Source: an uncultured Acidobacteriaceae bacterium (lineage in GTDB: Bacteria > Acidobacteriota > Terriglobia > Terriglobales > Acidobacteriaceae). Taken from it: a stretch of 64,000 bases of DNA. Location of the stretch: the NCBI GenBank assembly GCA_963733795.1, contig CAVTED010000003.1:155149-219148 (forward strand). Direction: 5' to 3'. Positions within the stretch are counted from its first letter, which is position 1; each line of letters starts with the position of its first letter. A program made the position numbers and the translations under genes. Positions 11,487 through 41,605 of this stretch are shown in pieces. The notes under the pieces were generated by a model. It had not been told where the DNA came from, did no database searches, and saw only the letters and a program-made list of their open reading frames with translations.

Positions 11487-12778
11487 ATGCCCGCACTTAC
11501 CGCACAACAGGCGCTTCCCCTGCAACTGGAAGCTTTTTCCCCTCAACATTGCCCGCGCTATCGAGGCCGACGCGGAACTCTCGCGCTACCTTGGCAACGG
11601 CAACGGCGGAGCCACCAAGGTTTCGCTGCGTTCTTTCCGTGCCCGGCTTTTGACCGCGCACGCTGGCGCAGTCGCCCAGTTCGATCTGGACAACGGATCG
11701 ATGCCCATGGGCGATGGCGACAAGTGGGATCAGTTCCTGTTTTCGCCCGTCGCCTGGACCAAACCGATTCAGTACAGCCAACTGGCGCAACTGGTCGGGG
11801 AGGGTGAGAACGTCGCCACCAACAACTCCGTCACCGAAACCATCCAGGGCGTCATCGAGCAGGTACAGATGTACCGCGACATGTTCCTGCAGGGCCCCGG
11901 CGACGGATCGCTGGCCTCGATCGATTCGACCACCGGCGGCAACTTCATCAACCTGCGCTCGACCATCACCGGCACCATCGATGGCCGCGGCGCGCACCTG
12001 GTGAAAGCGCAGCAGAAGGTGCAGATCATGTCGAACGCCGCCGGCGGCTACGTCCTCCGCGGCTCCTGCACCATCCAGAACGTGTTCGCTTCGCTGGGCT
12101 CGACTCAGCAGATTCAGGTGGACGCGATTCCGGCAGGCGTGGTGGCGGGCGATCTGGTAATCGTCGACGGCGCCGCTCCCGGCGCTCCGCAGTTCATCAA
12201 CGGCATTCCCTTCTTCGTCAACACCGCAACGCTCGGCAACGTGTACGGAATTTCCCGCGCACTGCCGTATGTGGTGGCCAGCGGCTTGAACCTCGCCAAT
12301 ACGGCGCAGGTCACGAAGCCGGTGTTCATCGTCGCGGAAAACCAGATCAAGCAGCGGTTGGGCAAAAAAGGGACTGAAAAACCAGTTCTACCAGACCTAC
12401 CCCTCGCAGCTTCAGGCGCTGGCCGAGCTGGCCTTCACCGACACCATCGTGCCGCTGCAGGGTGGCAAGGCGGGAAGCTACGACTTCATGTTCCGCGAGT
12501 TCACCATCAATGGCCGCATGGTCATGGAGAACGTGCACGCGGATCAGACCCGCTGGGATCTGCTTCTGAAAGAAGCGTGGAACACGATCAAGTGGGGCCC
12601 GGGCATGTTCTGGTTCAAAAACCGTGGCGGCCAAACCGTGTTTCAGGTGATGGACCCGACCACCGGCGGAATCACCGTGCAGGAGTTGATGTTCTACTGT
12701 GTTGCAGAGCAATGGTTTGTAAATAACCCCATGGCGCAGGGCGGAGTGCAACAAGCCAAAGTGCCGCAGGGTAACTGA
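11487..12778 (+). pseudogene. putative major capsid protein (about 430 aa, 2 frame breaks)
   Basis: A strong RBS (AAGGAG) lies 8 nt before the ATG at 11487. The sequence continues 11418-frame to 11404-frame to 12449..12778. The breaks fall at the T5C4 run 11534-11542 and the A6G3 run 12364-12372. The capsid call rests on position after the scaffold-like gene. Confidence 0.55.
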
Positions 12779-12855
12779 AGCCCTGATTTGAATTGAACTG
12801 AGCGCGTCTTCTGTTACGCTGTCGGAGAGCAGACAACAGGAGGCGCGAAAGTTTT

Positions 12856-13221
12856 ATGGATGAAGCCAAACACAAAACGTTTGCCGGTCTGCTGGTGGCC
12901 CTCAAGCGCCTCGCGTTGAAGCTGAATGCGCTCGATGTGCGCGCGCAGAACTTTATCGTCACTCTGCTCATGCGGCACTGTCAGGCTCGGATCGGCATGG
13001 GGCAACTCGAAGCGTTCGGCGGTAAACCGCCCGACAATCCTGAGAAATGCCTCGCGGAATTCCGCAAGATGGCGACCGAGTTGGAGCGCTTCTCCCTGAC
13101 CGACGAAACCTTTCTGGTGAACGTGCTGCAGCAAGCCTTCCAGCGGCGCATGGCGATCGATGTCGGCGAACTGCAAGGGGCGTTAGCCCAAATGCAGAAA
13201 CCGCAGGAGGTGGTGAATTGA
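12856..13221 (+). CDS. hypothetical phage protein
   Basis: 121-aa intact ORF. Confidence 0.5.
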   Translation: MDEAKHKTFAGLLVALKRLALKLNALDVRAQNFIVTLLMRHCQARIGMGQLEAFGGKPPDNPEKCLAEFRKMATELERFSLTDETFLVNVLQQAFQRRMAIDVGELQGALAQMQKPQEVVN

Positions 13222-13630
13222 CCGAAGCCCTCGCCAGAGTTCCCGCGCGGCTTCCAGCGCGCCGGCGCAAACTGAAACCGGAAGATGTCTCCGACGTCGA
13301 ACTCTCGACCATCGACCGCGCCACCGTGCTCGCCTATCCCCACGCCGCCAAAGTGGCGGATGGCTTGCGGACAACAAAGGGCGGCCGCTCGGCAATCGCG
13401 TGCTGGTCCTTCCCTTGCCGAAGGACGACCGCTACGGACGTATCATTATTCCCGCCACCGCGCAGGACAATCAGTGCGTGGGAATCGTCGTCGCTACCGG
13501 GAAAGACGCGCAGGATGTTCGCGTGGGCAACTACGTCGTGTTCCGCAAGTACTCGAACAGTTCCGTGAAACTCGGCGAGGTTGAGGTCTATCAGGTGTCG
13601 TCTTCCGACATCACCTTCGCTCTCGGCTAA
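13218..13630 (+). pseudogene. GroES/Hsp10-like co-chaperonin domain protein (one frame break near 13385)
   Basis: RPLGNRVLVLPLPKDDRYGRIIIPATAQDNQCVGIVVATGKDAQDVRVGNYVVFRKYS..EVEVYQVSSSDI parallels the GroES pattern (PLxDRVLV, GGIIIP, G.VvAvG, vGD.V.f.ky). The N-terminal 55 aa lie in the frame of 13047..13568. Confidence 0.55.
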
Positions 13631-13647
13631 ACCTCTTTTTCTCCATC

Positions 13648-14392
13648 GTGGAACTCATTCTTCGCGGCGACCTGAAGCGGGAAAACCCCGCGCCCAAGGA
13701 GCTGCAGCAATACCGCCTCGACGCCGGTGGAGAGAATCCTTACGGCGAACCGCTCATCCGACTCTGCCTGGCCGAAGACCGCATCATGCAGGCGGCGGCG
13801 AAGCGGAACGAGTGGGACGAGAATGCGCCCGTCGAAGAGCGCGGCGGATTGGGACTGGGCGTTGTTGCAGCAGATGCTGGCCCAACGGCAGGAAATCGTC
13901 CACGCCGCCAAACTCAAGGGATTCACCGACGACGAGATCGCGAAGCTCACCAAAGACATCTCGGGCATGATCGACGAGATCATTCAGGAATGCCTGGCGC
14001 GGCAACCGAAGAGTGTGTTTGTCGGCATGGCGGAGGTTGAAGTCTATCCCAGCGAAGGATGGATTTTAGAGAAGTGGAAGCCGGCGGAGGCCCGGGGGCC
14101 GGAAGAAGACTGGAACCTTTTCCGCTTTCAGGGCGTGGCCGCGCTCGGCGCTTACCCGCACTTCGGCGCCTACGAACTGTTTGCCGGTCCGTCTCCCTAC
14201 TTGCCGACTGAAGAGGAGATCGCCAACGCCATCCGCATTCACTTCAAGGAACTGGAATCCCGCCCCGCCTCCCCGCAACAGCTCGTGCTGCAGATGATGA
14301 ACGCGCGCGAAGAACGCAACCGCAGAAAAAGCGGCCCGGCTAGCGGATATTCAGGCTGCTGCCTCCGACAGTCCTGCCGGCCTCTTGCATAA
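13648..14392 (+). pseudogene. hypothetical phage head-module protein (frame break near 13850)
   Basis: ORF 13648..14040 continues in 13727..14392. Confidence 0.4.
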
Positions 14393-14490
14393 CCGCCTCT
14401 CGCTCGGGCCGGACGCGTGATCAACGAACTCGCCAAAAAATCTGGAATCAAGGGCCACGTAGGCTAACCACACTCGAAAGGAACGAACGC

Positions 14491-14872
14491 ATGAGAAAGC
14501 ATTCGCTGAGAATCGCCATGTCGATCACCGTATTGTTTCTGCTGTTCGCGCAGTTCATCACCACGGTTTCCGCCAACACGCCGGGCAAACACACCGTGTC
14601 GCTCACCTGGACCGCTTCCTCGACGTCCGGGTGACCTACAACATCTACCGGGGAGCCAGTGCGGGAGTTTGCAACGGGACGCCCACTCCGTATGCGACGG
14701 GAATTACAAGTACCGCCTACACCGACATGAATCCGCTCTCGGGCACGAATTTCTATAACGTCTCCGCCGTATCGAGACGAGCGGGGAGTCCGCCTGCGAT
14801 GGCGAGACTTCGGTCAACGTCCCAAACGTAAGCACCGCTCCTCCATCTGGTCTCGCTGGGGCGGTCAACTGA
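14491..14872 (+). pseudogene. secreted fibronectin-type-III-like protein (2 frame breaks)
   Basis: Signal peptide MRKHSLRIAMSITVLFLLFAQFITTVSA. An FN3-like pattern follows: HTVSLTWTASSTSG/VTYNIYRG...TAYTD..GTNFYNVSAVS/ETSGESAC. The breaks lie at the G-run at 14629-14631 and near 14775. Confidence 0.5.
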
Positions 14873-14891
14873 TTCGCTGGCTGAAAGCCGT

Positions 14892-14932
14892 CTTTTAATT
14901 ACTTTTTAATTACTTTTTAATTCCCTTTTAAT
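14892..14932 (+). repeat. AT-rich 11-bp tandem repeat (TTTTTAATTAC x3 plus a partial copy)
   Basis: Read directly: tcttttaattac tttttaattac tttttaattcc cttttaat. Confidence 0.9.
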
Positions 14933-14964
14933 CCCCCCCCCCCCCCCCCCCCCACACACACACA
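14933..14964 (+). repeat. poly-C tract (21 C) followed by (AC)5
   Basis: Read directly in the 139-nt spacer between the FN3-like gene and the ATG at 15012. Confidence 0.9.
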
Positions 14965-15011
14965 ACCTACAACCTTCAACCCGGCCCCTAGCGCCGCAGG
15001 AGAGCACTGTC

Positions 15012-16120
15012 ATGTCTGATTCCTTACCCATGCCCGGAGGCCCAGAGCCTTCAAGCGAAGTTGTTGTTCCCTATCAGGGCGGCGTAGTCCGCGTTCCGCC
15101 TGACGCCCAAGTCGCCTCGAAAGCCGCCGCAGAATTCACCAACGCATTTCATGGATTCCAAGGCCCAGGCAGAAAAAATAACCGGCTGGACGCGCAGACC
15201 CAGTCGAATCTCGACGAACTGATCCTGCAGATGCGGCGCGACCGTCCCAAACCGGCGACCGTCGTCAACCTGCATCCCTTCGAGTTGCAATTCAACGCCG
15301 ACAACTACCTGCTGCGCGGACACACCATTCCGGCGTGCATGCCGGGGATGCCGTTCAACTACAAAGCGATTCGCGGCTGGCGGCACGATGGCGGCTCCTA
15401 CAACGAGGACGGCTCGCGAAAATTCAAACCCATCACCCCAGTCATGGTGGCGGGGGAATTCATGCGCGAGTTTAACAAGGTGGAGACCTTCGGCCCTGGC
15501 GTGCTGATCTACTTGGGCGACTCCCATCCCGACAAAACCGGAACCATTGAAACCTACGACCAGATGGGCGGCTGATCACCGAAGACAAACAGGGCTTTGA
15601 CTTCGACGAAGAAGACCGCAAGATTCCCATCCTGGTCAAGGAGCCCGTGCTCGCCAGTTTCCCGGAGATGCTGAAAAGTCTGCGGGCGGCGCGCAACAAC
15701 TTCTATCTGCAGCAGGTGCGCAAGGCGGAACGCTGGGTGAAGAAAGGCGAGAAATTCGCGCCCTTCAGCCAGGACTACCACATCGCCATGGCGCAGGTGC
15801 TGGTCTCCGAAGGAGTCATCCCGGGCGTGCCCGAAGAACTCACTGGCCTCGCCACCCGCGAACAGCGCGCGATCGCCGAGCACAACTGCCCCTCCTGCCA
15901 GCATCCGGTCAACAAAAGCGCCTACCGCTGCGAGCACTGCTCGAACATCCTCGATGCCCTGGCTGCGTTCAAGGACGGCGCCATCGAATTCGCGCACGCC
16001 AAAATCGCCCTGCTGCCCGACGAGAAATACGCCGAAGCGGAGAAGATCCACAAGCAGCGCGAGAAGCGGTCTGCGAAACGGCAGAAGCCGGGAGTAAAGA
16101 GTAAGCCGTGCTGCAGGTAA
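15012..16120 (+). pseudogene. virion structural protein candidate (about 369 aa, frame break near 15570)
   Basis: ORF 15012..15575 continues in the frame of 15647..16120. The C-terminal part has a CPSC...CEHC ribbon. Confidence 0.45.
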
Positions 16121-16838
16121 GAGACGTCATCGCCCGGGTCGCCTCCAAGTGTGACGACCCGGACCAGACCTATATCACCACGGACTACGTCGCCGGATTC
16201 CTTGACGACACGCAGGACTGGTTGTTCGGCAAGCTGCGTCTGGCCAACAACCAGTTCTCCGAAGAGGTTGTCATCCTGCCCAACGTCACCGCCGGTACGC
16301 CGACGCTCGATGCCTTTCAGGTCACTGGACAGCCGTTGGCAGCGATGTGCGAGCCGAAAACCCTGCGCTGGATACTTCCCGGGCAGTCGAACATTTACTG
16401 GCGGAAAGCCGACGGCCCTCTGGACTATCCGCGCGACCTCAATCCGGCGGACCGGCGCTTGATTCCTGGGCATGGGTCCGCAACTCGGTGCAGCTCGCGA
16501 ACTTCTCGACCAACCTCGACCTCGAAGTCACCGGCGACTTCCTCTTCGATCATCTCGCCGACCCCGACGACGCCCTGCAGATGACTCGGCTCGCCAACCG
16601 CACCCTCACCTGCAAATTAGCGTCGGAGGTGGGGAAGGCCCGGGGGAACGACAAGTGGGTGACCACCTACGGGGCGGATGCGACCGAAGCTCTGGACGAT
16701 CTGATCATCGCCCTGAGTAAGGAAAAATCAGCGCAAGACGCATCGCCTGGCCCGCATGAACCGCAGAGGTGGTTCGTCGGTGGGCGACAACGTAGTCAGC
16801 CGCTAACCGAGGAATATCACGGAATCATGATTTCGTAA
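16108..16838 (+). pseudogene. virion structural protein candidate (frame break near 16460)
   Basis: The GTG at 16108 overlaps the previous stop. ORF 16108..16584 continues in 16347..16838. Confidence 0.4.
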
Positions 16839-16867
16839 TTTCGTAATTTCGTAATTTCGCTTTTCGG
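16831..16867 (+). repeat. tandem octamer TTTCGTAA x3 plus degenerate copies
   Basis: Read directly. The repeat overlaps the stop at 16836-16838 and ends at the RBS (ggaga) of the ATG at 16882. Confidence 0.9.
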
Positions 16868-16881
16868 AGAAACAACACACT

Positions 16882-17268
16882 ATGGCAAACGTACTCACCA
16901 TCAACGATTTGAACGCCGTGCGCGTCGAGCAACGGGAAAAGACCATCACTTACTCGGTGGCCTTGAGCGGCAACTACGCGCAGGCCGTCCGTGGGCAGAA
17001 CGTGGGCGAGGTCCTCGACCTGACCAAAGTCCAGTCCACCCAATACCTGCCCGAGCAGTTCTGGAAGTGTCGGGCCGCGCGTTGTCTACCCACTCAACAC
17101 CGGTTCGACCGGCTACTCGATGTCGGTCATTCCCGGTGCCGACAACCTGCACTGGCTGCTGATGATCTACTCGGGCGTGGCCGCGCAACTGGCCGCTGGA
17201 GCCATGCCGCCAACGCCGTGGGACTGCCAACCACGCCGATATTAAGGTGGAAGCGAGGGGTCGCGTGA
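16882..17268 (+). pseudogene. small virion protein candidate (frame breaks near 17065 and 17200)
   Basis: MANVLTINDLNAVRVEQREKTITYSVALSG.. continues as ..GPRVVYPLNTGSTGYSMSVIPGADNLHWLLMIYSG.. in another frame. Confidence 0.4.
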
Positions 17269-17272
17269 TGGA

Positions 17273-18115
17273 TTAAGCCGCAATGAGCGCGAAGGGTTTG
17301 CGTCTAGACCCTTTGCTTGAGTTGCACCGCTTACAGGCGGGCACGAGATTGGAAGCCCAATTCGGCCCGCCTTTACTTACCGGGATCACGTGATCCTTGG
17401 TGAGAGTCGCGGTTCAATTCCTTCTCACACCAGCGACATCGCCATCCGTAGTATGCGACTCGTGCAAGCCACTGCCCTGTCGTGTGCGATCCAGCTACGC
17501 CACGCCTCTTGAGTTTATCGTTGCGACTGTTGGTGCGCGATTCGTGCAGAGAGGCGTGATATCGAGCCTTGCGGCGCGCAGCAATCTCTGTGCGTTGCGA
17601 CTGATAGAAGCGACGAAAACGCGCTCGCGATCTCTCCGGATTTGCTTTGGCCCAGCGCTCTTGTGTCCTACGGTTAGTCTCTCGATTATTTTCCCGAGAT
17701 CGCCGTTGGTAGGCGCGAATTTTTTCAGGGTGATGTTTATTCCATCGCCGCTGTGCTGCGTACGCTTTCTCTCGGTTCTGAGCGCGCCAGCGACGGAGAT
17801 AGTCCAGGCGTTTGCGGCGATGGCGAGTTAGTAGTCGCGGCCCTCTGCCCGCACCTTGTCAGGATTTGCTTTCTGCCACTGGCGCACGGCTGCTCGCACC
17901 TTGTCAGGATTTGCTTTCTGCCAGCGCTTGACCCTCTTCTTGAATTGCTCCTTCTTGTCGGGATCGGCCATCGCCGCACGATAGCCTTTACGGTTCGCCT
18001 CATTGATCGCATCTCGATGCGCCTTGCATCTCTTCGATCCTTCAAAGGCCGCCGACCCGCACGCAATGCAGAGTCGATCTTTGATGCGCTGCAACTGTAC
18101 TTTGCTGTAACTCAC
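17273..18115 (-). pseudogene. HNH homing-type endonuclease (2 frame breaks), antisense within the structural operon
   Basis: The N-terminal part is ORF 17828..18115 (CIACG..KRCKAH ribbon, repeated WQKANPDKVRA). The middle frame has repeated R.W...NPEK-type segments. The C-terminus reads [30 protein letters not shown], the HNH signature. Confidence 0.7.
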
Positions 18116-18153
18116 GACATTACATGTAACACATTTTTGCGGGTGCGTGAAGT

Positions 18154-20910
18154 ATGAATTTCGACGGGTTCACAGCGCACCCAATAGAAAGGTTCAGCTC
18201 GTTGGTCGAGCAAGATGATGCGACGGTACTTCCCGCCGGGGTCTCGCCCGAAGCGCAAGACATCACCTTCCACCTGACCAGCGTGCGCACGCGCGACGGG
18301 ATTCAGTCGCAGTACGGCTTCACCCTTCCCGACGGCGGACAGGTCACCGGGCTCGATTCCGCGAAGCTCGCCGGCAACCCCGACCTGCAGGTGCCCTTCG
18401 CCTTCTCGTCTTTGGGAAACCTCTACAAGGAATTCCCTGCGGGCAGCGGCAACGTGATCCCGATATCGAGCCCGCAACTCAGCTTGCCCGCCGGGGCCAG
18501 CATGCAGTCTGCGCTGGCCTACAAAAAAGCCTTCCTGGTGTTTGGCGATCTGTTGAATTCGCTGGGTGCGCCCGCAGTGTTGAACCTCTCGACCGGAGTA
18601 CTCGACCCGCTTTCCGGCAAACCGTTCGGCGCCTCCTGGCTGGCGAACACGCAATACAACTTGGGTGAAGTCGTGACCCCGGCGAATCCGGTCGGCGGCA
18701 ACGGACACACCTATGTCTGCACACAGGCGGGAAAGAGCGGAGCCTTACAACCCGCTTTTCCGGTGCTCGAAGGCGGAACAATTGGAGACGGCGGAGCAAT
18801 CTGGACGGAAACGACGCCGTTGATGGTGCAGGCGATCCCAGCCCCTGAGCTCCGCCCGGAGGCGCGAGCCACAATCCCGGCGGCGGCGCTTTCCCGCCGG
18901 ACGAGACGTGTATTTGGTTTACACCATCGTCAATCCGCAGGGCGAATCGACCACTTCGGTCCCCATCGTCTTCGTCAACACGTCCGCGAACGACGAGATT
19001 CTCGCCAACAGCGCGAACTTTTTTAATTCCGCGGCCAATAACGCCCTGTGGTGGGCTGGGCTGGTTGAATCTACGCGCCTACCGGCTTCAACATTTACGA
19101 AGCCGACGTGCCCACCGGAAACCCAGCTCCCGCGCTGGCTGCCTACAAGAAAGTGACGGGAAGCCCGTTTGCGTTCAACGCTGCCACCGTCGTGACTGCC
19201 GCCGCTGCTGGCGCGGCGCCGCCTGTGGCCAACAGCGGCCTGGTGGTTCCCCTCGGGAATATCTGCTCCGGCCTGCGCTACATGATCGTGATGTTCATCA
19301 ACCGCAACGGCTATGTCTCGGGCGTGACCCAGGCGGCAGTCGTCTCCTATAACGGCGGCAGCAGTGGCTTCCAGCTTTACGTCCCGCATTTGCCCATCGG
19401 GCCTCCGAACACTTACGCAAGATTGTGTGGGTTTACTCCCGCCGGGCAGTTGAGCCAAACCGCGGGCTTTGGCATTTCGAGCGCGGGACCGTACTTCTGG
19501 ATTTCGCCGAATTTCCCCAGCGGCGTCTTCGACCTCACCAAGATTCCCGGCGGAGTCTCGATCGCCGACGTGGTCAATGGCGTGCAAATGACCTCGACCA
19601 TCGTCAACGACAACACCTCCACCTCGGCCACGTTCAACTTCACCGACGATTATCTGAAATTGGAGCAGAACGATCTCTCCGGCAACTTCCGCAAAATCCA
19701 GGTGCCCAACTGCTCCGATGTCTATTTCTCTCCCACCCTGCGTCGAGTCTTCTATGCCGACGACAACTTCCCCAGCGGCTGGCGCGTCTCCCTGCAGGAC
19801 GATCCCGAGTCGGTGTATGACGATTCGAGCGGCATCATCCAGGTGGCTCAGGACAACGGGGAGCGAAGGACGGCCGTCCGCGAATTCAACGGCATCGTCT
19901 ACCTAATGAAAGAGCGCTCCGGACATGTCCTGAACGCCAGCGCGGTCGACCCAAAGGACTGGGCGGCGACCAAGCAATGGGGCGGGGACAAAGACGGATC
20001 TGGGCCCTGCGGCCCGCGCGCGGTCGATACCGCCACCAATTTCATGTGCTACGTGCACCGCTCCGGGGTGTACATCTTTGAAGGCGGGCAGCCCTACCGC
20101 ATCTCGAAAGAATTGCCCATCACCTGGTCCGCGATCAACTGGGCTTACCAGCACCGCATCTGGGTCAAGATTGACGACGAGACCAGGGAAATCCGCATCG
20201 GCATCCCTTACCGGCAGTCGACCGTCCCGAACAAAGTCCTGAAACTGAATTACGAGGAACTGCCAGCGTGGTCTCCGCCCAGTTTTGCCCCTCCGGTCCA
20301 CTTCTCGCCCTATGTGGGAAAGGAAATCGCGGCGGGCGGATGCTACAAGTGGTCGGTCGACAACATCGCGGCCAACGTATGCGTTCGCGCCGAACGCAGC
20401 TTGCCACCCGTAGCCATCCCTGCATGGTTCGATCAGAAAACCGTGCAGTCCCAGATTCTCTACGGTTCCGCAAATCCGGACGGAGCCGTGTGCGCCATTA
20501 TTCCCGGCTCACTCGACGACAACGGCCAAGGGATCGATTCGGTCTATGAAACCGCCTGCCCGCCGGAAGACCCGCGCACCGGCGGAAACCTGATGCGGCC
20601 CAACCGGCTGGGCGGCGTGCAGGCCAATATCGACGGCCAGGGGCAAGGCTCGATTTACGTGCTGGCCTTGCGCGCCAAAGACCCCAAGGACGGCGAGCCG
20701 CAAAAGGCGGGACAGGCCAAAGCCACGCGCGGAGCCGAGATCAAACTCAAAAAACCCTGGATTGCCGGCATTCCTTACTCCTGCGGTGGGCAGATGACCA
20801 ACGAACGCATGCGCCTCAGGATCACCAACGACAAGCGCGCGGGATGCGGATTCGATTTGAAGTACGCCGCCATTTATGCCGTGCCCGTGACCGGCGCGCG
20901 GCCGCGATGA
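18154..20910 (+). pseudogene. large virion protein (about 920 aa; tail-tube/nozzle-size), 2-3 frame breaks between 18850 and 19110
   Basis: ORFs 18154..19026, 18908..19156 and 19108..20910 read as one protein. The call rests on its size and its position just before the tail fibre. Confidence 0.5.
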
Positions 20911-20920
20911 GATTGTCGCA

Positions 20921-22195
20921 GTGACTCTGCCCCAATTCAGAGGAGACTTCCTTAAGCTGAATCCGCGCCTGGCGCAGTGGAGCGACCAGCTTGAGCAAAG
21001 ACTGCAGAGCCTCGAACAGCAGGTGGGCGGCGTGCCTGCCGGGTTCGTCGACGATCCCTCGCAAGTCAACCAGGGCGTAGTACCTCCGCCTGCAGCAAGT
21101 TTTTCGGTGACTGGCATCGACGGCAAATTCATTGTGCTGGTGTCGAACCCCGAAACGGTAATCCCCCAAAGCGTCCTGCAATCAAGGCTGCGCTTCCAGG
21201 CAGGAACAAACCTGCGCGGGACAGCGATTCTGCACAACCTGCAATCGGCGACAGATTTGAACTTCAATCAGTCGTCGAATTTGAAAGACTACGGAACGTC
21301 CTCGCAGTTGCTGTGGACCGACCAGGACCCGAACGTCACCCGCTTTTTCCGGCTGCGATCTTCCTTCGATGGCGTGACCTGGAACGCCTGGCAGATTTTT
21401 TCGAGCACCATCACTTGCGGCCCGGAGGGAGTGTGGTCGGGCATCCTTCGGTCGGCGGCGCTCACGCAAGTGAACGCTTCGGCAACGCCCACCACCAAGC
21501 CTCTGACGGCGGCAACCGGAGTGGCGCCGAACAACGCCACCATCAGCATCGCCGCGTTTCAGGTGCAGTATCCGAATTCCGTCTCACCCGCGACGAACGG
21601 ACTGGTTTCCTACAACAGCGGAGCGGTGACAGGTTTGCTGGATTCGACGATGTACTTCGTCTACTGCCTCGATCCGAAATACGCCGGAGGGGCGCAGACG
21701 TATCTGGCGACAACCGACCAGACGTTGATCACCTCGCAAGACTATCTGGTGTACCTAGGAAACATCACGACGCCGGCGCACGGCGGAGGGGGAACCAGCG
21801 GTGGCGGCGGAGGGACTGGCCCTCCGGGCGGAAATTGTTTCACCGGAAATACTCTGGTCATTACCCGCGACGGACTGAAGCCCATTGCGGCCGTGATTGC
21901 GAAACAGGATCGGGTGCTCACGCAAAGAGGCTGGAGAACGGTTCGCACTCTGCGCGAACACTGCGACTTCTCCGGGCCAATGTGCGATATGGGCCACGAC
22001 GAGCTGGTCACCTTCCCGCACCGCTTCTGGTGGCGGCTAGGGTGGGTGCGGGCAGATCTTCTTTTCCTGGAACTTCCTCGACGGCACTTCAAGGGTTCCG
22101 TATTCAACCTCGAAGTCGAGGGTGACGGCTCCGACGAAGAACAGTGCTACGTACTGGCCAACGGCTGGATCCCGCACAACTTTCAGAAAATCTAA
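20921..22195 (+). CDS. tail-fibre-like protein with C-terminal Hint (intein-like) domain
   Basis: Intact 424-aa ORF. It has an N-terminal coiled-coil segment, a Gly-rich linker (HGGGGTSGGGGGTGPPGGN), then CFTGNTLVITRDG... and ends ...YVLANGWIPHN-FQKI. Confidence 0.65.
   Translation: MTLPQFRGDFLKLNPRLAQWSDQLEQRLQSLEQQVGGVPAGFVDDPSQVNQGVVPPPAASFSVTGIDGKFIVLVSNPETVIPQSVLQSRLRFQAGTNLRGTAILHNLQSATDLNFNQSSNLKDYGTSSQLLWTDQDPNVTRFFRLRSSFDGVTWNAWQIFSSTITCGPEGVWSGILRSAALTQVNASATPTTKPLTAATGVAPNNATISIAAFQVQYPNSVSPATNGLVSYNSGAVTGLLDSTMYFVYCLDPKYAGGAQTYLATTDQTLITSQDYLVYLGNITTPAHGGGGTSGGGGGTGPPGGNCFTGNTLVITRDGLKPIAAVIAKQDRVLTQRGWRTVRTLREHCDFSGPMCDMGHDELVTFPHRFWWRLGWVRADLLFLELPRRHFKGSVFNLEVEGDGSDEEQCYVLANGWIPHNFQKI
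21836..22180 (+). other. Hint / bacterial-intein-like domain (Cys306 to His419-Asn420)
   Basis: The N-terminal block is C-F-x-G-x-T-x-V and the C-terminal block ends in HN. There is no endonuclease insert, and the +1 residue is Phe. Confidence 0.6.
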
Positions 22196-22196
22196 G

Positions 22197-22451
22197 ATGG
22201 CGCATTCCGCTTCCATTGTTCGCGTGCACGAACCTGCGGACGGGATTCTCGCGGTAACTGTCCGGTGCTGCGGAGATCCCAAGACAGACTCCGTTCTGAG
22301 CATCCATGCTCTGCACCGGGAAGATGCGGAAATCCTAAAAGACATTCAGGCGCACAAGGCTCGGGTAGAGCACTTGCATGCTCACAAAGCGCGCGCGAAA
22401 GAGTTGATGAGTACGATCGGCGCGAGCGTCGAGGACTGCGGATGCCCGTAA
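22197..22451 (+). CDS. hypothetical phage protein
   Basis: The ATG at 22197 lies 2 nt after the fibre stop, in frame with track ORF 22122..22451 (84 aa). Confidence 0.45.
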   Translation: MAHSASIVRVHEPADGILAVTVRCCGDPKTDSVLSIHALHREDAEILKDIQAHKARVEHLHAHKARAKELMSTIGASVEDCGCP

Positions 22452-22903
22452 CCTGGCGCGACGCCACGCACGCCGACCTGCCGCGAATTCACGAACTGTG
22501 GGATGAACAGGAGTCGCGCTTTGACGGCACTGGCATTCCTGTTGACCGGCCTCAACTGCTGTATCCAGTGGAAGAGAAGGGTCATTTCTTTTATCCGTAC
22601 TTTCCTCCAGTCGTGAGGGTGCGAGTGGCAGAGCGCGAAGGCGTCATCGTGATGTGGAAGTATCAAGAGCTAGTTCCCGAAACCTGCATCGTCGGCAGCG
22701 ACAAAGAAGCAATGGAGTCCATCGGGAATGAACTCACGGCCGACGCGCACTGGGCGAAGTCGAAGGGCTTTCGTTCGGGATGGGGCCTGATCCCCGCCAA
22801 ATTTATCAGCGTCTTTGCACGCTTTCTACGCAATCACAAGCACATCCGTCCGTGGAAATCCCTCACTCCGGTCGGCATCAATTTTAAGGAACTCGGGGAC
22901 TAA
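22442..22903 (+). CDS. hypothetical phage protein
   Basis: The ATG at 22442 overlaps the previous gene, in frame with 22265..22903 (153 aa). Confidence 0.45.
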   Translation: MPVTWRDATHADLPRIHELWDEQESRFDGTGIPVDRPQLLYPVEEKGHFFYPYFPPVVRVRVAEREGVIVMWKYQELVPETCIVGSDKEAMESIGNELTADAHWAKSKGFRSGWGLIPAKFISVFARFLRNHKHIRPWKSLTPVGINFKELGD

Positions 22904-22907
22904 TCCC

Positions 22908-23498
22908 ATGGGCCGCAGTCAATCCGCACAGATTTCCCAGCAGAGCGAGCAGAACGCCCAGCAGAATCAGGGCAACGCGCAAGCCGCGCTGGGCTCGACC
23001 AATGCCGCGCTCACGAAATATTCCTCCGATGTCCAGAACTTCATGAAGTTTGGCCGCCAGACCTACGGGGCGAACGGCACCTACATGAAGGATCAGAACG
23101 CCATCGCCACCACGGGAGCTGCGGCGGGCTCGAACGCGATCAAAGGCAACTTGGCGCTGCATTCCCTTGCGACAGGTGAAAATACCGGGGGCTACGCCGG
23201 CAGCGTGGCGGAATCGCAGCGGCAGGCGCAGAGAGACCTGACCGGCACGATGGCCAACGCCGACGCCACCCGCTTACAGAATCTCACCGCGATCAACCAG
23301 CAAGGCGTGCAGGATTCCGCGTTACCGGCGCAGGTGCAGGCGAGTCTGTACGGAACTTCGCTGGGTGGATCGAATTCGGCCATGGGAACGGCGGAAAGCG
23401 CGTCGGCCGCTTCGCCGGGATTCTTTGATGTATTCGGGCAGGATTTGGCCAGTGGCGCGGGCGCGGCGCTCGGAGCCTACGCGGCGAAGAAGGCGTAA
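22908..23498 (+). CDS. Gln/Ala/Gly-rich internal-virion-like protein
   Basis: The ATG at 22908 is in frame with 22815..23498 (196 aa). The call rests on low-complexity composition and position after the fibre. Confidence 0.45.
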   Translation: MGRSQSAQISQQSEQNAQQNQGNAQAALGSTNAALTKYSSDVQNFMKFGRQTYGANGTYMKDQNAIATTGAAAGSNAIKGNLALHSLATGENTGGYAGSVAESQRQAQRDLTGTMANADATRLQNLTAINQQGVQDSALPAQVQASLYGTSLGGSNSAMGTAESASAASPGFFDVFGQDLASGAGAALGAYAAKKA

Positions 23499-23502
23499 AT
23501 AA

Positions 23503-24660
23503 ATGGCAGACGAAGAACTCGACGGACTTACCGGCGCAGGATCGGTCGGATCGGAAGAAGAAGATCCGCTTGAACGCCTGAGTATCGGCCAGCGCATTGC
23601 GGGCGTGAAAGACCCTGCCGCGGCTCCGCCGTCCGACCCGGCTCCGCCGATGCCCAAGGTTGCATTAGATCCCAACAGCATTCCAGAGAGCATTCGTCCG
23701 CGCCCCATGGCTCCGCAGCAAATTCCGCAACCGCCATCCCCAAGTCAGAATTCCGCACTCGTTCCCCTCATCCAGCAGCAGGCCCAACTTTCGAAGCCGA
23801 TCAATCCCATGGACGAGACCACGGGAAAGATCAAGCCGCAGTACCGCATGGGGATAGGACAAAGGACTCTCGGCACTGCCGCCAACTTCCTGCAGGGATT
23901 TGGGCGCAAGCCGTTTACTCCAGTTCCGGTCGGCCCTGGCGCTACCAATTGGAGATTTGGGCGGGAAGAAGCGCAGCGCGAAAAACAACTGGAGGGAGTG
24001 AACCAGCAGATCGGCACGCAGGAAAAACTCAACGACGAAAACGAGAAGCTCTACCGCGACGCCACGCGGCAAGCCTATGAAGGCCAACTAGGCGAAGCCC
24101 GGAAGCAGACTGCTGAGGCCCAAGAATCGAAGGCCGACACTGCCAGTAAGGTTGCAGATGTCAAGGCACTGGCGACAAAGAATCAATTCGAAGAAGCTAA
24201 GGCGAAACTCGAAGAAACGGCTCGTCGCAACGACCAGCTTATGAAGATAGGCCAGGGCAACCTGGAATTAAAGCAGCAACTCGGCCAAATGGCGCTCGAT
24301 CTCAGACAGCAGCAACTTGAGAACGAAAAGCAGAAATTTACCTCCGGACTGGATGCGAAGTCTCTTGAGGCTGAGCGCAAAGGGCGCCTCGATGCCATCG
24401 AAAAGCGATATCACGATCATCCCTACAAGACGATGTTCGACGATAAAGATGCGGAAATCAAAACTGTAAATGAGGATATCGATAGACGCCTGCAGCAAGT
24501 TGGCGTAGGCGCAGCCAAGCCGGGAACAGCGCCGACGAAAACTCCAGCTCCGCAAACCCACGCGTGGTCCCGCAGTGCATGGCAGAAGGCCAACCCCAAA
24601 GGCGATGTAAAGGCGGCAGAAAAGCAGGCTCGCGCTCAAGGCTTCGAGGTCGGCAACTAG
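23503..24660 (+). CDS. coiled-coil internal-virion-like protein
   Basis: Intact 385-aa ORF with a long charged heptad-like region (aa about 160-330). Confidence 0.5.
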   Translation: MADEELDGLTGAGSVGSEEEDPLERLSIGQRIAGVKDPAAAPPSDPAPPMPKVALDPNSIPESIRPRPMAPQQIPQPPSPSQNSALVPLIQQQAQLSKPINPMDETTGKIKPQYRMGIGQRTLGTAANFLQGFGRKPFTPVPVGPGATNWRFGREEAQREKQLEGVNQQIGTQEKLNDENEKLYRDATRQAYEGQLGEARKQTAEAQESKADTASKVADVKALATKNQFEEAKAKLEETARRNDQLMKIGQGNLELKQQLGQMALDLRQQQLENEKQKFTSGLDAKSLEAERKGRLDAIEKRYHDHPYKTMFDDKDAEIKTVNEDIDRRLQQVGVGAAKPGTAPTKTPAPQTHAWSRSAWQKANPKGDVKAAEKQARAQGFEVGN

Positions 24661-24672
24661 CGATTCGTTCGT

Positions 24673-27600
24673 ATGGATACCGACAGCAACGATTCAAGTA
24701 TCGGCCTCGGCGGTCTCACTCCGGGCGCGGCTCCGGCAACTGCCTCCAACCTTAGCCGCGCCGAGATCGCCGATTACCTTAACCGTGCGAATTGGGATCC
24801 AGCAAAAGCAGAGGCGCTGGCCACACATGAACGCCTGTCGAACCTTGGCGTCCATCCTGCCGTAGCCGCACGAGTCGCAGTCGCAGCCGCCCAACCAACG
24901 CTGCCTGCGGTATCCGATGCCTCGCAAGTAAGTCCTAACCAATCTCCATCTCCCGCAGCGCCCACTCCACAACCACGCTCCCCCCAGTCCCTCGCTGCTC
25001 CGGCCCAGCCCGCACCGCAAGCCAATGCGCCGACAGTAAGGCCAGCAATCGCGCCAGTCCGACGGCCCACGCCAGCACCACGGCCATCGTCTGCCCCGAT
25101 CGATCTCTCGGCGGGATTTGTGCCGAAGGCCAGCGCTCCGAAAGCGGCAGCGAAACCAGGCGAGATCGATTTGTCGGCAGGATTTGTTCCGAAAGACGCG
25201 GCGACACCAAGCGAACCGGCGCAGCCAGGACTTCTTGAGCGGACATACGAAACCTCCGGAATCAAAGGTCTGGTCGATGCCGCCGAAGCTAAGACCGACG
25301 CCGACCACCAAGTCGCGAACGAGATTCGCGATCACATCAAGGCTGGACGATGGGGCGACGCCACCAAGACACTTCTCAAACAGATCGGCGGGGCCGCGCT
25401 GGAAGGAGCAAAAGGTCCAGGCGGCGACTTTTTGGAAAGCGTTGGGAAAAGCACATACCAGCATGGAAAACAGGCCGTTGACGCGGTGCGGCGCGGCGAT
25501 ACCAAAGAGGCGATCGCGCAGGGAGCCGAGGCGGTTCCAGTGGTAGGCCAAGTAGGGGCTCAAATAGCCAAACCACTCGCGCAGGACATTGCCGATAAAA
25601 ACTGGTCAGGAGTCGCGGGAGATGTGCGCAGGAGGATTCCGGCAATCTTGAGCACGGCCAAGATGGCAGGAGAAGGACTTAAGTCTCCCAGTGAAGCTGC
25701 TGAAACCGCCATTCCGAAAGACCCCGTTGTGGCTGGAACCGAACTTCCTCGCACTGTAGGTCAAGCCGCATCCGAAGCCAATCCGGCGGGGCTTGGGGCG
25801 GACGTAAAGGGCATCGAAGATGTAGCGCGTCGCATCCCTGGCAGCGGCAGATTGCGCGAGATCAGCACAAAACAACAAGCAGGAGCGCGTCAGATTTTGA
25901 CCGACAAAGCGCGCACAGCCGTCCCAGGAGAGGCTGTCGAAGCCTCGAACGCCCCGGAATCTATAGAGCAGAATGCAGCCAATGCCGCCGAATCAGCTCG
26001 GCAGGCTGGCTCTGCGAAGTACCAGGAACTCGCCAAAGCCGCCGCAGATGCGGAGTTTGATAAGCCGGTAGAAGCGGCACACTCAATTCTCCAAGACGAA
26101 AACATTTCAAAAGTACTACCCAAGAGCGCGCGGGATGCTCTGAACAAAGTCGCATCCGGATTGACTGGTCGCGAAGAGATTTCACAACAGATATATGGGA
26201 GACCATTCGCCGATCTTGATGCAGCAAAGCAAGTAGAGGTAGGTAAGGCGATGACGACCGGTCCCCGTCCGGCTGACCCGTTCGCAGACATCATAAAAGC
26301 ACGGTCAGAGATTGGGGATGCTGCCAATGGGATGAAAGACGCAGCAGATCGCTTCCAGGCACACAAGGCACTTGACCAGTTCGACCAGGCAATAAGCGAT
26401 GCCCTGAATGAGCACGACATCAAAGCCGGGACGAATTTGTCCCAGACACTCTCCCAAGCAAAACAGCTCTGGTCTCAAAAATATGCTTTCGAACAATTCC
26501 GCGACGGACTGCAGGACATTATGCGCGAGCAGCCGCATACAGGAAACCGCCAAATCAACGGAGCCGCTTTCCAGAAGCTGATCAATGATCTCGACCCGCG
26601 GGCCGCGAAAGGGAAGACACCGCTACAGCGGATGTTCCCTGACGATCCGCAATCCGTGAAAGACCTCCACGACCTCGGGGACTTCATCGGGGAAGAATCA
26701 AGCGCAGGCGGGCGGGATGGCGAGCAGCATGGCGAAACTGCGAATTCTAGGATTGAAGGAAAGCGCGCTAGCGCTCATCGCCAACAACTTAGGGTTTTCT
26801 TATCTACTGTCAAAGCCAGGGCTGGCACGCGCGCTCCTAAGCGCACTGACGGCAGGGAAAAATGTTGTCAAAGCGAGTGCGGCGATCGGGGCGATCAATC
26901 ATGCTGCGGGAGACTTTCCGCGTGGGCGATCTAGCAAGTCATCGAAGGCCGACTTATTGCCAAACAGCCAGGAGAGCGCGGCCCAAGCCCAAGCGAACAC
27001 CAACACAATCCCGACAATTAGTCGACCGACAACCACTACGGCAACCACAGCGACCACAAAAAACAGCACCACACCGGCGGCGAATTTGAAGCCGAATTCC
27101 ACGGCCCAAGACTCTATCCCATCCGCTGCGTCTTCGCAAGCGGATCAAACTCCCAAGGGTTTTCAACGCCCCGAGATGCAGCAGCACAAGATGGCAGGAA
27201 TGCGGGCAGCAGCCGCGTCATCCAATACCCCTGACCACCTAAAAGAGCATCTTGCCAAACTGACATTCCCTCAAAAGGGAGATCAAGTCACGATGGCCAA
27301 CGGGCGTTCGGGCAAGGTTGAATTCGCCGATGCGAAACTTCGAGTGGTCCGCGTGCGCACGCCAGACGGCAAAGTCTATCGTCTCACTAAAAATAATGAG
27401 ATCGAAAAGCTCCAGGCGGAGCCGAAATACAAACACGGTTCTACCCAGGCCGCGATCCCGAAGGGTTCTCATGCCAGCTTTGGACTGGATCTCGCTCGCA
27501 GACGGATCGACTATCGCGATGTGGCTGGCGACGGAAAAGAGGTGGGCGGGGACCATGTGACTGTTAAATACGGAATCAAAGGCGACGATGTCGAGGGCAT

Positions 27601-27944
27601 CAAGAAATACCTGGCATCACTCGCTCCCTTCGACGCCACTTTGGGTAAAACAGAAAAGTTCCCGCCGACGGAACACTCCGACGGCGCTGCGGTGATCCAC
27701 GCGCCAGTGATATCTCCGGAACTGGAACGGATCAATCGCGAGATCGAAAAGCACGGAGAATTCGCACCCTCAAACTTCCCTGACTATCGTCCTCACGCAA
27801 CCGTGGCGTATGTGAAGCCAGAAAAAGCGGACAAGTACGTCGGCATGAAAGTGACCGACGAAGAAGTTCCGCGTGAGCGAGATCGCCATCACGGACAAAA
27901 ACGGCAAACAGCAAGTGGTGAAGTTAGGGGGGGCAACTGGATGA
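24673..27944 (+). pseudogene. giant internal-virion/ejection-like protein (about 1090 aa) with C-terminal 2H phosphoesterase domain; frame breaks near 26700 and 27865
   Basis: ORF 24673..26934 continues in the 26717 frame after a Thr-rich linker. The last about 25 codons (KKFRVSEIAITDKNGKQQVVKLGGATG*) are in a third frame. The 2H part may instead be a separate gene starting near 27180. Confidence 0.45.
27422..27944 (+). other. 2H phosphoesterase (LigT/cyclic-phosphodiesterase-like) domain
   Basis: Two H-x-T-x motifs lie 80 aa apart: GDHVTVKYG (His codon at 27554) and RPHATVAYV (His codon at 27794). Confidence 0.6.
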
Positions 27945-28222
27945 CGGTCAAGCAGCGCAAACTGGGCGCCCAGTACCGCAAGCTAAGGAAAAAGCGCCAG
28001 CAGTTGGCGACCAGAATCAAGTGCCTGGAATGTCTCGAACTGAAGAAGCTGGCAAAGCGTTATAAGGTGCGGCGTCGCTATTTTGCCGTAGCTTCCCATG
28101 GCAATGTCATGGGACAATGCGCCCATGACGAGTCAGACCCGAACCTTCATCGAATTCGGCGATTTGATTGCGCTGCATTTGGAGTGCAAGAAGTGCGGCT
28201 CCTCGCTCCTTGTGAGTGTTAG
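27941..28222 (+). CDS. small basic hypothetical protein (3' part doubtful)
   Basis: The ATG overlaps the stop of the 2H frame (gATGa): MTVKQRKLGAQYRKLRKKRQQL... The last about 40 codons overlap the better-looking ORF 28098..28439. Confidence 0.3.
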   Translation: MTVKQRKLGAQYRKLRKKRQQLATRIKCLECLELKKLAKRYKVRRRYFAVASHGNVMGQCAHDESDPNLHRIRRFDCAAFGVQEVRLLAPCEC

Positions 28223-41529: not shown

Positions 41530-41605
41530 GGGCCTATAGCTCAACGGTTAGAGCAGCAGACTCATAATCTGTTGGTTCCAGGTTCAAATCCTGGTGGGCC
41601 CACCA
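41530..41605 (+). tRNA. tRNA with CAU anticodon (elongator Met, or Ile2 if lysidine-modified), CCA encoded
   Basis: Manual fold: acceptor GGGCCTA/TGGGCCC, D stem GCTC/GAGC, anticodon stem GCAGA/TCTGT with loop CTCATAA, T stem CCAGG/CCTGG with loop TTCAAAT, discriminator A, CCA; 76 nt. The G1-C72 pair excludes an initiator. Confidence 0.9.

Follow-up and report, generated by a model that had tools for sequence, protein, structure and literature searches.

Phage receptor-binding proteins are known to use self-cleaving C-terminal chaperone domains of one fold, and in the Peptidase_S74 chaperones a Ser-Lys dyad lies within a trimeric helical domain. Bacterial intein-like (BIL) domains of the A type (for summaries of Amitai et al. 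2003 and of Dassa et al. 2004, see PMC7765530 and PMC7664689; structure 2LWY) adopt the HINT fold and are defined by a conserved terminal His-Asn, and BIL domains that lack a nucleophile at the +1 position yield mainly N- and C-terminal cleavage products (PMC7664689; PMC7765530). The BIL2 domain of Tetrahymena resolves its thioester onto a lysine, which leads to an isopeptide product (PMC8616854). Here we describe a gene located at positions 20921-22195 of a 64,000-nucleotide stretch of DNA (the window) from an uncultured Acidobacteriaceae bacterium (assembly GCA_963733795.1, contig CAVTED010000003.1, positions 155,149 to 219,148), whose product ends in a domain of this kind. In a podovirus-like prophage of an Acidobacteriota host, the protein is probably the one for host recognition, of the distal fibre or needle type, and its terminal Hint domain would remove itself.

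The last 115 residues of the protein are a genuine and complete HINT domain. By itself the window sequence stays below the thresholds for such families, as it matches the Pfam family Vint at E=0.048 (13.9 bits versus a cut-off of 27) and the NCBIfam model intein_Nterm at E=0.053. The assignment is significant at the level of the family, because Vint matches were obtained for 24 of the 47 homologues in the alignment, the best of them at E 1.7e-9, and Hint_2 matches for nine of the 47. Among 81 wider carriers, the corresponding counts are 38 and 29. The best Pfam matches of the family are the Hog-like Vint and Hint_2 rather than intein models, and the polymorphic-toxin HINT model is not among the family's matches at E<=0.01. 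A profile built from the Hint region of the family recovers the gp41-1 mini-intein from the Protein Data Bank (PDB) at E=5e-4, wherein the family motif VTPxH falls on the intein block-B motif, and it gives a weak match to the C. thermocellum BIL domain (E=0.086).

The predicted structure leads to the same assignment. An AlphaFold2 model based on the family alignment has a mean predicted local distance difference test score (pLDDT) of 84.8. The score exceeds 90 throughout residues 306-420, and the linker that precedes them is the sole part with values under 50. A Foldseek search of the PDB with this model returns BIL2 (6y75), gp41-1 (6qaz), the C. thermocellum BIL domain (2lwy) and Tetrahymena Vint (8r2c), each with a probability of 1.00 and with target-normalised template modelling (TM) scores of 0.52-0.63. 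Matches to viral Hints and inteins were also obtained. Both computational checks that the initial annotation had proposed, a search with Hint profiles and a fold prediction, therefore came out in its favour. The initial annotation, which was made from the sequence alone, had recognised the N-terminal Cys block and the C-terminal His-Asn block of a Hint or BIL domain. Both blocks are real, and blocks B and F are present besides, such that all four splicing blocks are readable: block A at Cys306, block B at Thr364-Phe-Pro-His367, block F as VFNLEV and block G as ANGWIPHN. There is no second Hint copy in the window or in the family's loci. Likewise, there is no Pfam match to Peptidase_S74 in the window protein or its family, whose C-terminal fold is HINT instead. 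Phmmer and other sequence searches of the PDB with the window protein gave no significant match for either the body or the Hint domain, and a word-indexed homologue search with the Hint-only profile gave only 10 short proteins, none of which is usefully named.

The Hint module opens with CFTGNTLVITRDG, wherein Cys306 is encoded by nucleotides 21836-21838, and closes with His419-Asn420 (22175-22180). Between these ends are Thr364 (22010-22012), His367 (22019-22021) and Asn396 of block F (22106-22108). Cys1, the His of block B and the terminal His-Asn are the only invariant positions in an alignment of 81 unrelated carriers, for which the mean column identity is 9%. The Cys1 and block-B positions are also invariant in the family alignments, as is the terminal His-Asn within the family, with the exception of some family Hints of a second type, in which the His of block B is missing (P0034, for instance, reads VSSTEPI). 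As judged from these alignments, all residues for an N-S acyl shift and for Asn cyclisation are present and under strong constraint. Another well-conserved residue is Cys409 (22145-22147, in the context QCY), which is located 11 residues before the terminal Asn. It is invariant in the close family and nearly so in type-1 Hints, and it has no counterpart in type-2 Hints. Cys409 could form a disulfide with Cys1 or could serve as a second nucleophile.

The positions flanking the domain are also informative. The +1 residue is Phe421 in the window protein, and among 65 family members there is no Cys or Ser at this position and only four instances of Thr. For 150 wider Hints, Ser or Thr is found at +1 in 14 and Cys in none, and the residue is hydrophobic in most carriers. 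The domain therefore fails as a canonical class 1 intein, and its combination of Cys1, a C-terminal His-Asn and no +1 nucleophile resembles the signature of A-type BIL domains. The earlier judgement that canonical splicing is unlikely is thus upheld throughout the family, and it fits the published behaviour of BIL domains. On the other side, the -1 position is occupied by Asn305, the last residue of the linker, in the window protein and by Pro in most family members. Finally, there is a Lys at one of positions +1 to +4 after the terminal Asn in all 65 family members of both Hint types, in 101 of 150 wider Hints (67%) and in 24 of 28 tandem or internal Hints (86%), where the composition-based expectation is about 0.11.

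The architecture of the whole protein is summarised in the table below. The open reading frame (ORF) of 424 codons is located exactly where the initial annotation had placed it, and the linker, Cys306, His419-Asn420 and the FQKI tail are all present. The sequence database contains an identical 424-residue product and 75 homologues, nearly all of which have the same start and layout. In the model, the N-terminal region forms helices at residues 3-13 and 15-35 and is separated from domain 1 by a disordered stretch. In structure searches, both body domains resemble tandem FN3 domains, among them the FN3 region of gpJ, the central fibre of lambda. The linker and the FQKI tail are predicted to be disordered, which would leave the Hint domain flexibly tethered. 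Mean pairwise identity in the close family is 59.5% for the Hint domain, compared with 64% for domain 1, 68.5% for domain 2 and 30% for the N-terminus, and the linker is the best conserved segment (85%). Because the Hint domain is conserved about as well as the body domains, it is not a decaying remnant.

Table. Features of the fibre-like gene and of its immediate neighbours in the window
Feature	Positions	Strand	Remarks
Upstream virion gene, orthologue of a 904-residue protein	18154..20910	+	Reading frame has three stops; ORFs 18154-19026 and 19108-20910
Fibre- or needle-like virion gene with C-terminal Hint domain	20921..22195	+	Complete ORF, GTG start, 424 residues plus stop
N-terminal long helix, residues 3-35; presumed attachment or coiled-coil segment	20927..21025	+	AlphaFold secondary structure; least conserved part
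Domain 1, residues 59-172, FN3-like beta sandwich	21095..21436	+	AlphaFold model, tandem FN3 matches
Domain 2 (dom2), residues 173-285, distal beta domain 'type A'	21437..21775	+	Accompanies linker and Hint domain
Gly-rich flexible linker AHGGGGTSGGGGGTGPPGGN, residues 286-305 (20 residues)	21776..21835	+	pLDDT <50 at residues 296-302
Mini-HINT domain, residues 306-420 (115 residues)	21836..22180	+	AlphaFold, Foldseek, family profiles, Pfam
Four-residue tail FQKI	22181..22192	+	Lys423 at 22187-22189; low pLDDT; followed by stop codon
Small RCC gene, 84 residues, motif VRCCGDxKTDS	22197..22451	+	Cognate partner of domain 2

To establish how widespread this terminal architecture is, the Hint-only profile was searched exhaustively against 1.84 billion representative proteins. 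With a cut-off of E<=1e-3 it matches 3,916 proteins, 439 of which also pass E<=1e-10, and the counts that follow are taken from the best 147 of the 3,916 matches. These carriers range in length from 137 to 2,360 residues and have unrelated bodies, and in about 112 of them the Hint domain ends two to eight residues from the C-terminus, with a mode of four. At least six Gly are found among the 15 residues before Cys1 in 99 of 116 terminal-Hint carriers, and many carriers have a Hedgehog-like junction, G|CF. There are J-like central tail fibres among the carriers, such as P0115 (tail-fibre PHROG E=3e-82, central fibre J E=7e-49), as well as members of other tail-fibre families, one head-decoration-like protein and many proteins with Laminin_G_3, PA14 or CBM domains. 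Another J-like carrier, P0152, closes a siphovirus-type tail module with tail completion, major tail and tape-measure genes in a Terriglobia prophage that has an integrase nearby. Sixteen further Hint-carrier loci are found in IMG/VR viral contigs. A few carriers have an internal Hint domain, and no endonuclease domain was seen in any carrier scanned.

Tandem C-terminal Hints are present in P0077-P0082, P0086, P0088, P0090, P0091, P0094 and P0095, and at locus L023 (1406-4372). In these proteins only three to six residues, including Lys, separate the first His-Asn from the second Cys1 (KKRV, MKKN, LKAGGG). Public databases annotate the carriers as hypothetical or at most as 'Hint-domain' proteins. 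Literature searches for Hint, BIL and intein-like domains in phages, tails or virions gave only true inteins in terminases and similar enzymes, and a search with the Pfam accession numbers gave nothing relevant.

Comparisons among carriers indicate which part of the protein travels with the Hint domain. A profile of domain 2 matches 33 of the 147 carriers, which are otherwise unrelated, and the match always ends approximately 15-20 residues before Cys1. The profiles of domain 1 and of the N-terminus match none of the 147. Domain 2 is also found at the IMG/VR loci L014, L016, L019 and L020. Since domain 2 is shared while the N-terminus and domain 1 are not, the exchanged unit comprises the distal domain, the linker, the Hint domain and the tail. 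We propose, on the basis of these comparisons, that there is a portable cassette composed of a distal domain, a Gly linker, the Hint domain, a short Lys-containing tail and, in the case of domain 2, a small accessory gene downstream, which would be swapped among phage fibre scaffolds.

There are about nine Hint-less members among 76 in the family, and they end in a Gly linker and a short basic or hydrophobic tail (GGGNNKLPQL, GGGGRQIAQL). Both their distal domain and the gene downstream are different ones. Hint and Hint-less alleles are both found in closely related Angelobacter phages, and no pair that differs by the Hint domain alone was found among the alleles compared. A simple insertion of the type made by inteins was considered, since linkers and tails are similar in Hint-less alleles, but the distal domain differs and a clean insertion is thus unsupported.

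Within the family, the same position is taken by either of two very different Hint types. In type-2 Hints at L008 (6332-7609) and in P0032, P0065 and P0070, the block-F-like sequence FTVYRIHLDRSHTF precedes the block-B-like sequence ACSEHIIQYFGGGF, and these domains therefore appear internally permuted; Hints of the P0067 type keep the usual block order. Such a permutation would fit the pseudo-twofold symmetry of the HINT fold. A further arrangement is found at L035 (1893-2990), where an HK97-type capsid gene (P0076) ends in the last strand of domain 2 and the Gly linker YVGKITTPADGGGGTGGGGGGGLIP, without a Hint domain. This gene is part of a portal, S78 protease and capsid module, and a small RCC-like ORF is located next downstream. 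P0076 looks like a deletion or recombination chimera, or like an assembly artefact.

The RCC gene, which lies directly downstream of the fibre-like gene, is named for a motif found in proteins of approximately 80-100 residues that share the consensus (V/F)R.RCC.D..(S/T)DS, many of which end in CGC or CxxC. Relatives are found at L001 (11254-11511), L004 (11181-11417), L012 (13457-13759), L016 (4318-4611), L019 (4382-4636) and L020 (4386-4637). The gene is located directly 3' of the Hint gene in the close family, in a distant branch, in the Angelobacter loci with type-2 Hints, in the J-like prophage and in three IMG/VR carriers, and thus adjoins domain 2 fibre genes in podovirus-like and siphovirus-like phages alike. 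It is present at every domain 2-positive locus for which there is downstream sequence, and it is missing next to those Hint carriers without domain 2 that were compared. At five of five Hint-less loci, another small protein occupies its position. The possibility that the RCC protein is a partner of the Hint domain or an acceptor for its thioester is ruled out by this distribution, which follows domain 2 exactly and not Hint. Judging by this co-occurrence, the RCC protein is the cognate partner of the distal domain, and it may be a fibre-tip accessory protein or a chaperone. A fibre tip with its own accessory gene is the usual arrangement in phages. The pairing of the RCC gene with domain 2 matches this arrangement, and it supports a role of the protein in host recognition.

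Gene order provides additional evidence on this point. Relatives come from soil-type metagenomes and from metagenome-assembled genomes of Acidobacteriaceae, Candidatus Angelobacter and Terriglobia. The Hint gene of the closest intact relative is located between genes for a 904-residue virion protein and a 2,608-residue protein with a 2',5'-RNA-ligase-like domain. In the family's distant branch, the Hint gene comes after genes for a P22-type portal, for an SU10-type adaptor and for a 648-residue protein, in this order, and before small genes and several large ones. The order matches that of podoviruses, in which a needle or fibre gene comes after the nozzle gene. In relatives, putative ejection genes lie downstream of the Hint gene. 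The fibre identity of the protein is supported indirectly by the ends it shares with J-like fibres, by synteny with the SU10-type adaptor, by the carriers with tail-fibre PHROG, lectin or CBM matches, and by the small cognate gene. The initial annotation had called the protein tail-fibre-like; the same synteny, fibre end and small gene support this indirectly, and the window protein itself gave no PHROG or Pfam fibre match.

With a confidence somewhat better than even, we consider the Hint domain to be autoprocessing, with a cut between Asn305 and Cys306 and release of FQKI at Asn420. This is inferred from the HINT fold, the constrained catalytic residues, the lack of a +1 nucleophile, the flexible tether and the published behaviour of BIL domains. 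In the mechanism that we propose, Cys306, aided by Thr364 and His367, would attack the Asn305-Cys306 bond after folding, in an N-S acyl shift. In the absence of Cys, Ser or Thr at +1, the thioester would be barred from canonical splicing and would be resolved mainly by hydrolysis. Cyclisation at His419-Asn420 would then free the FQKI tail, and the mature virion protein of approximately 31 kDa, having lost its Hint domain, would end in the Gly-rich linker. The Hint domain would thus be a cis-acting, single-turnover maturation module of the fibre tip, comparable in role to the self-cleaving C-terminal chaperone domains of tailspikes, but with a different fold.

Several points weigh against this proposal. 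The place of the fibre in the virion is inferred from synteny only, and the window copy belongs to a degraded prophage and may never be expressed. In addition, tblastn searches with the window protein and two other carriers gave no match among 50,697 records of isolated phages. Hedgehog and B-type BIL domains work without a terminal Asn, and N-terminal cleavage alone would need neither the invariant His-Asn nor the Lys that follows it. The conservation of both in the alignments hints at a more elaborate reaction. Likewise, Pro at the -1 position of engineered inteins disfavours the acyl shift, and Pro is what the alignments place there in most family members. Finally, FN3-like body domains such as those in the model probably need no trimerisation chaperone, in which case the Hint domain would be removed without an obvious purpose.

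Some of these observations are accommodated by a ligation reaction, which we regard as unlikely but as the main rival, and which the initial annotation had not considered. Here the thioester at Asn305-Cys306 would be resolved by an amine in the tail. This could be the epsilon-amine of Lys423, giving an isopeptide as in Tetrahymena BUBL BIL2, or the alpha-amine of Phe421 after cyclisation of Asn420, as in BIL splicing without a nucleophile. Either route would leave a fibre whose Gly linker is capped by FQKI, much like the GGG-NNKLPQL or GGGG-RQIAQL ends of the Hint-less homologues, which retain both the linker and a short basic or hydrophobic tail. The strong excess of Lys after the terminal Asn and the invariance of the terminal His-Asn in the 81 carriers are what such a reaction would lead one to expect. 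BIL2, which makes a Lys isopeptide (PMC8616854), is among the best structural matches, and BIL trans-splicing without nucleophilic side chains has been cited (PMC7664689, its reference 16). However, the products of BIL domains are predominantly those of cleavage (PMC7664689), and one third of the wider carriers have no Lys in the tail. The resemblance to Hint-less tails covers only three to seven residues, these tails often contain Arg rather than Lys, and they need not be homologous given that the distal domain differs. Moreover, a four-residue cap has no obvious function.

It is also conceivable, although rather doubtful, that the poly-Gly tether, the Hint domain and the Lys together constitute an ATP-independent device for C-terminal conjugation on phage fibres. 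The Hint domain would turn the Gly-rich end of the fibre into a thioester, which would then be handed to a lysine. With the same tentativeness, the lysine involved might be the adjacent one in the tail, which would yield an isopeptide cap, or one in another virion or host protein, which would yield covalent anchoring. With such a device, phages would have an equivalent of their own to the ubiquitin-like conjugation of BUBL/BIL2 and to Hedgehog lipidation.

An explanation to which we give a low probability is that the Hint domain is not catalytic and is retained as a structural, receptor-binding or assembly domain at the tip, wherein the intein-like residues are historical. The prevalence of Pro at -1 and the type-2 Hints without a block-B His, such as P0034, are compatible with this explanation. 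Nevertheless, four catalytic positions are invariant over 81 very divergent carriers in which the remainder is variable. The Hint domain of the model is also held on a disordered Gly tether of 20 residues rather than packed on the body, and, as the Hint-less homologues demonstrate, the mature architecture can do without it.

Even lower is the probability we assign to conjugation in trans, by which the thioester of the Gly-rich end would be passed to a nucleophile on another molecule, either a lysine of a virion protein, so that the fibre is anchored or cross-linked, or a component of the host envelope (compare Hedgehog cholesterol and BUBL). The near-universal Gly-rich flexible end before Cys1, the Hedgehog-like G|CF junction and the Pfam matches to Hog-like Vint and Hint_2 rather than to intein models are all consistent with such chemistry, and BIL2 provides a precedent for conjugation to several substrates. 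However, only four residues follow the Hint domain, and there is no adduct-recruiting region of the sterol-recognition type. No conserved partner co-occurs with the Hint domain, given that the RCC protein follows domain 2, and the Hint-less homologues have the same Gly linker, such that this linker is independent of Hint chemistry.

Least probable is a selfish mini-intein remnant, a mobile intein that was inserted near the 3' end of a fibre gene, no longer has its homing endonuclease or its +1 nucleophile, and stays in place although the phage gains nothing from it. The four splicing blocks, the phage-type mini-intein gp41-1 as the closest solved sequence relative, the co-occurrence of Hint and Hint-less alleles in closely related Angelobacter phages and the sharing of one site by two very different Hint types could be read in this way. 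However, inteins occupy conserved sites of essential enzymes, where loss of splicing is lethal, whereas the variable protein described here has its Hint site three to six residues before the C-terminus. Essentially none of the carriers examined in this family of thousands has a +1 nucleophile, which denotes a stable state and not decay, no endonuclease domain was seen in any carrier scanned, and no two of the alleles compared differ by the Hint domain alone. The conservation pattern is poorly suited to both this explanation and that of a retained domain.

The prophage around the gene is degraded. Most orthologues of genes of the intact relative L001 are split over two reading frames in the region of the window from about 11500 to 28000, which affects at least six genes, with changes of frame for example at 12369/12386, 13860/13970, 15647, 16440, 17064 and 27856/27861. 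In the gene immediately upstream, counted in the frame that begins at 18154, codons 291, 296 and 305 are the three stops (19024-19068). Its product resembles virion structural, head decoration and CBM_5_12 families only weakly, and a sequence search of the PDB with this protein gave nothing significant. The Pfam and PHROG matches of neighbouring genes are weak as well. By comparison, the Hint gene aligns end-to-end with its intact L001 orthologue in one frame, which agrees with its earlier description as one of the few intact large genes of the prophage. Because the long host-like ORFs to the right look intact, the decay of the prophage is probably real and not the result of sequencing error.

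Several other observations were made in the window and in its relatives. An ORF at 26717-28222 (+) carries a domain of the 2',5'-RNA-ligase or Acb1-like phosphodiesterase type (Pfam E 9.5e-9, Acb1 E 3e-4), and it corresponds to part of the giant 2,608-residue protein of intact relatives (L001 14628 onward). The Acb1-like domain could be a nuclease of the type directed against the cyclic oligonucleotide-based antiphage signalling system (CBASS), as part of a virion protein that is putatively ejected. The intact relatives L001 and L002 have, in the region of their head genes, a gene for a 187-residue protein with a Cpn10 (GroES) domain (2228-2791 in both). Two adjacent ORFs of the window, 6316-7668 and 7665-8912 (+), encode proteins of 450 and 415 residues whose C-terminal 240 residues are nearly identical. 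The identity is 90% over 248 residues, with differences located almost entirely at the start, and there is no family match. This pair is either a recent tandem duplication of approximately 1.24 kb or an assembly artefact. The sole tRNA gene in the window is a tRNA-Met (CAT) at 41530-41605 (+), which could mark an integration site or the boundary of the prophage.

The distribution of these proteins suggests that there is another solution for the ends of fibres besides the chaperones, one that differs in its chemistry and is apparently very common, namely a thioester-forming Hint domain on a poly-Gly tether, which is present in thousands of metagenomic fibre-like proteins and in none of the isolated-phage records searched. 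If the domain is self-cleaving, then the fibres of soil and Acidobacteriota phages undergo a maturation step that is new, and the mature ends of such proteins need a different annotation. Furthermore, these would be very small natural Hints that make C-terminal thioesters next to a Gly-rich sequence, which would make them attractive for protein ligation. If the thioester instead goes to Lys or to another protein, this would constitute a new covalent chemistry in virion assembly, and transfer of the thioester would make the biological function that BIL domains serve directly testable.

The kind of domain described here is known, but its use as a terminal, Gly-tethered and Lys-flanked module of a portable fibre-tip cassette appears to be undescribed. 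Like A-type BIL domains, the fibre Hint has an N-terminal Cys, a block-B TxxH, a terminal His-Asn, no +1 nucleophile and the HINT fold. It also shares with them a length of about 115-140 residues, the lack of an endonuclease and an occurrence in variable regions of non-conserved, surface-type proteins. Unlike A-type BIL domains, it has a tail of only three to six residues, a poly-Gly tether, a following Lys and phage fibres as carriers, and its sequence similarity to the solved A-type domain of C. thermocellum is marginal.

BIL2, from the Tetrahymena BUBL1 polyubiquitin-like locus (6Y75/6TMM), is among the best structural matches and has an N-terminal flank that ends in Gly. Its lysine chemistry parallels the conserved Lys after the His-Asn of fibre Hints. 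However, BIL2 is a zinc-regulated eukaryotic domain located between two ubiquitin-like domains, whereas the fibre Hint has no folded C-terminal domain and its ligation is hypothetical. The class 1 mini-intein gp41-1 (6QAZ, cyanophage-like), which is the closest solved relative by profile, is similar in its fold, its size and its blocks A, B, F and G. In contrast with gp41-1, the fibre Hint has no Cys, Ser or Thr at +1, does not appear to occupy a conserved enzyme site and has, among the alleles compared, no intein-free one with a contiguous conserved extein.

The Hedgehog Hog and Vint domains (PF01079, PF14623; 8R2C) are also C-terminal to their cargo, have a junction resembling the G|CF of many carriers, and rely on thioester-based N-terminal cleavage as their core chemistry, and Vint accounts for the best Pfam matches of the family. 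Nevertheless, the fibre Hint does not count as a Hog domain, since the sequence after it includes no sterol- or adduct-recognition region, and the terminal His-Asn that is conserved here is dispensable in Hog. Finally, the initial annotation had likened the domain to the self-cleaving chaperones of tailspikes, though with a different fold. The fold and chemistry of Peptidase_S74 do differ, and the analogy is one of function only. The Peptidase_S74 chaperones and the tail-fibre-plus-chaperone cassettes (PMC10579305) likewise have a C-terminal single-use module on a phage receptor-binding protein that is exchanged horizontally together with the tip.

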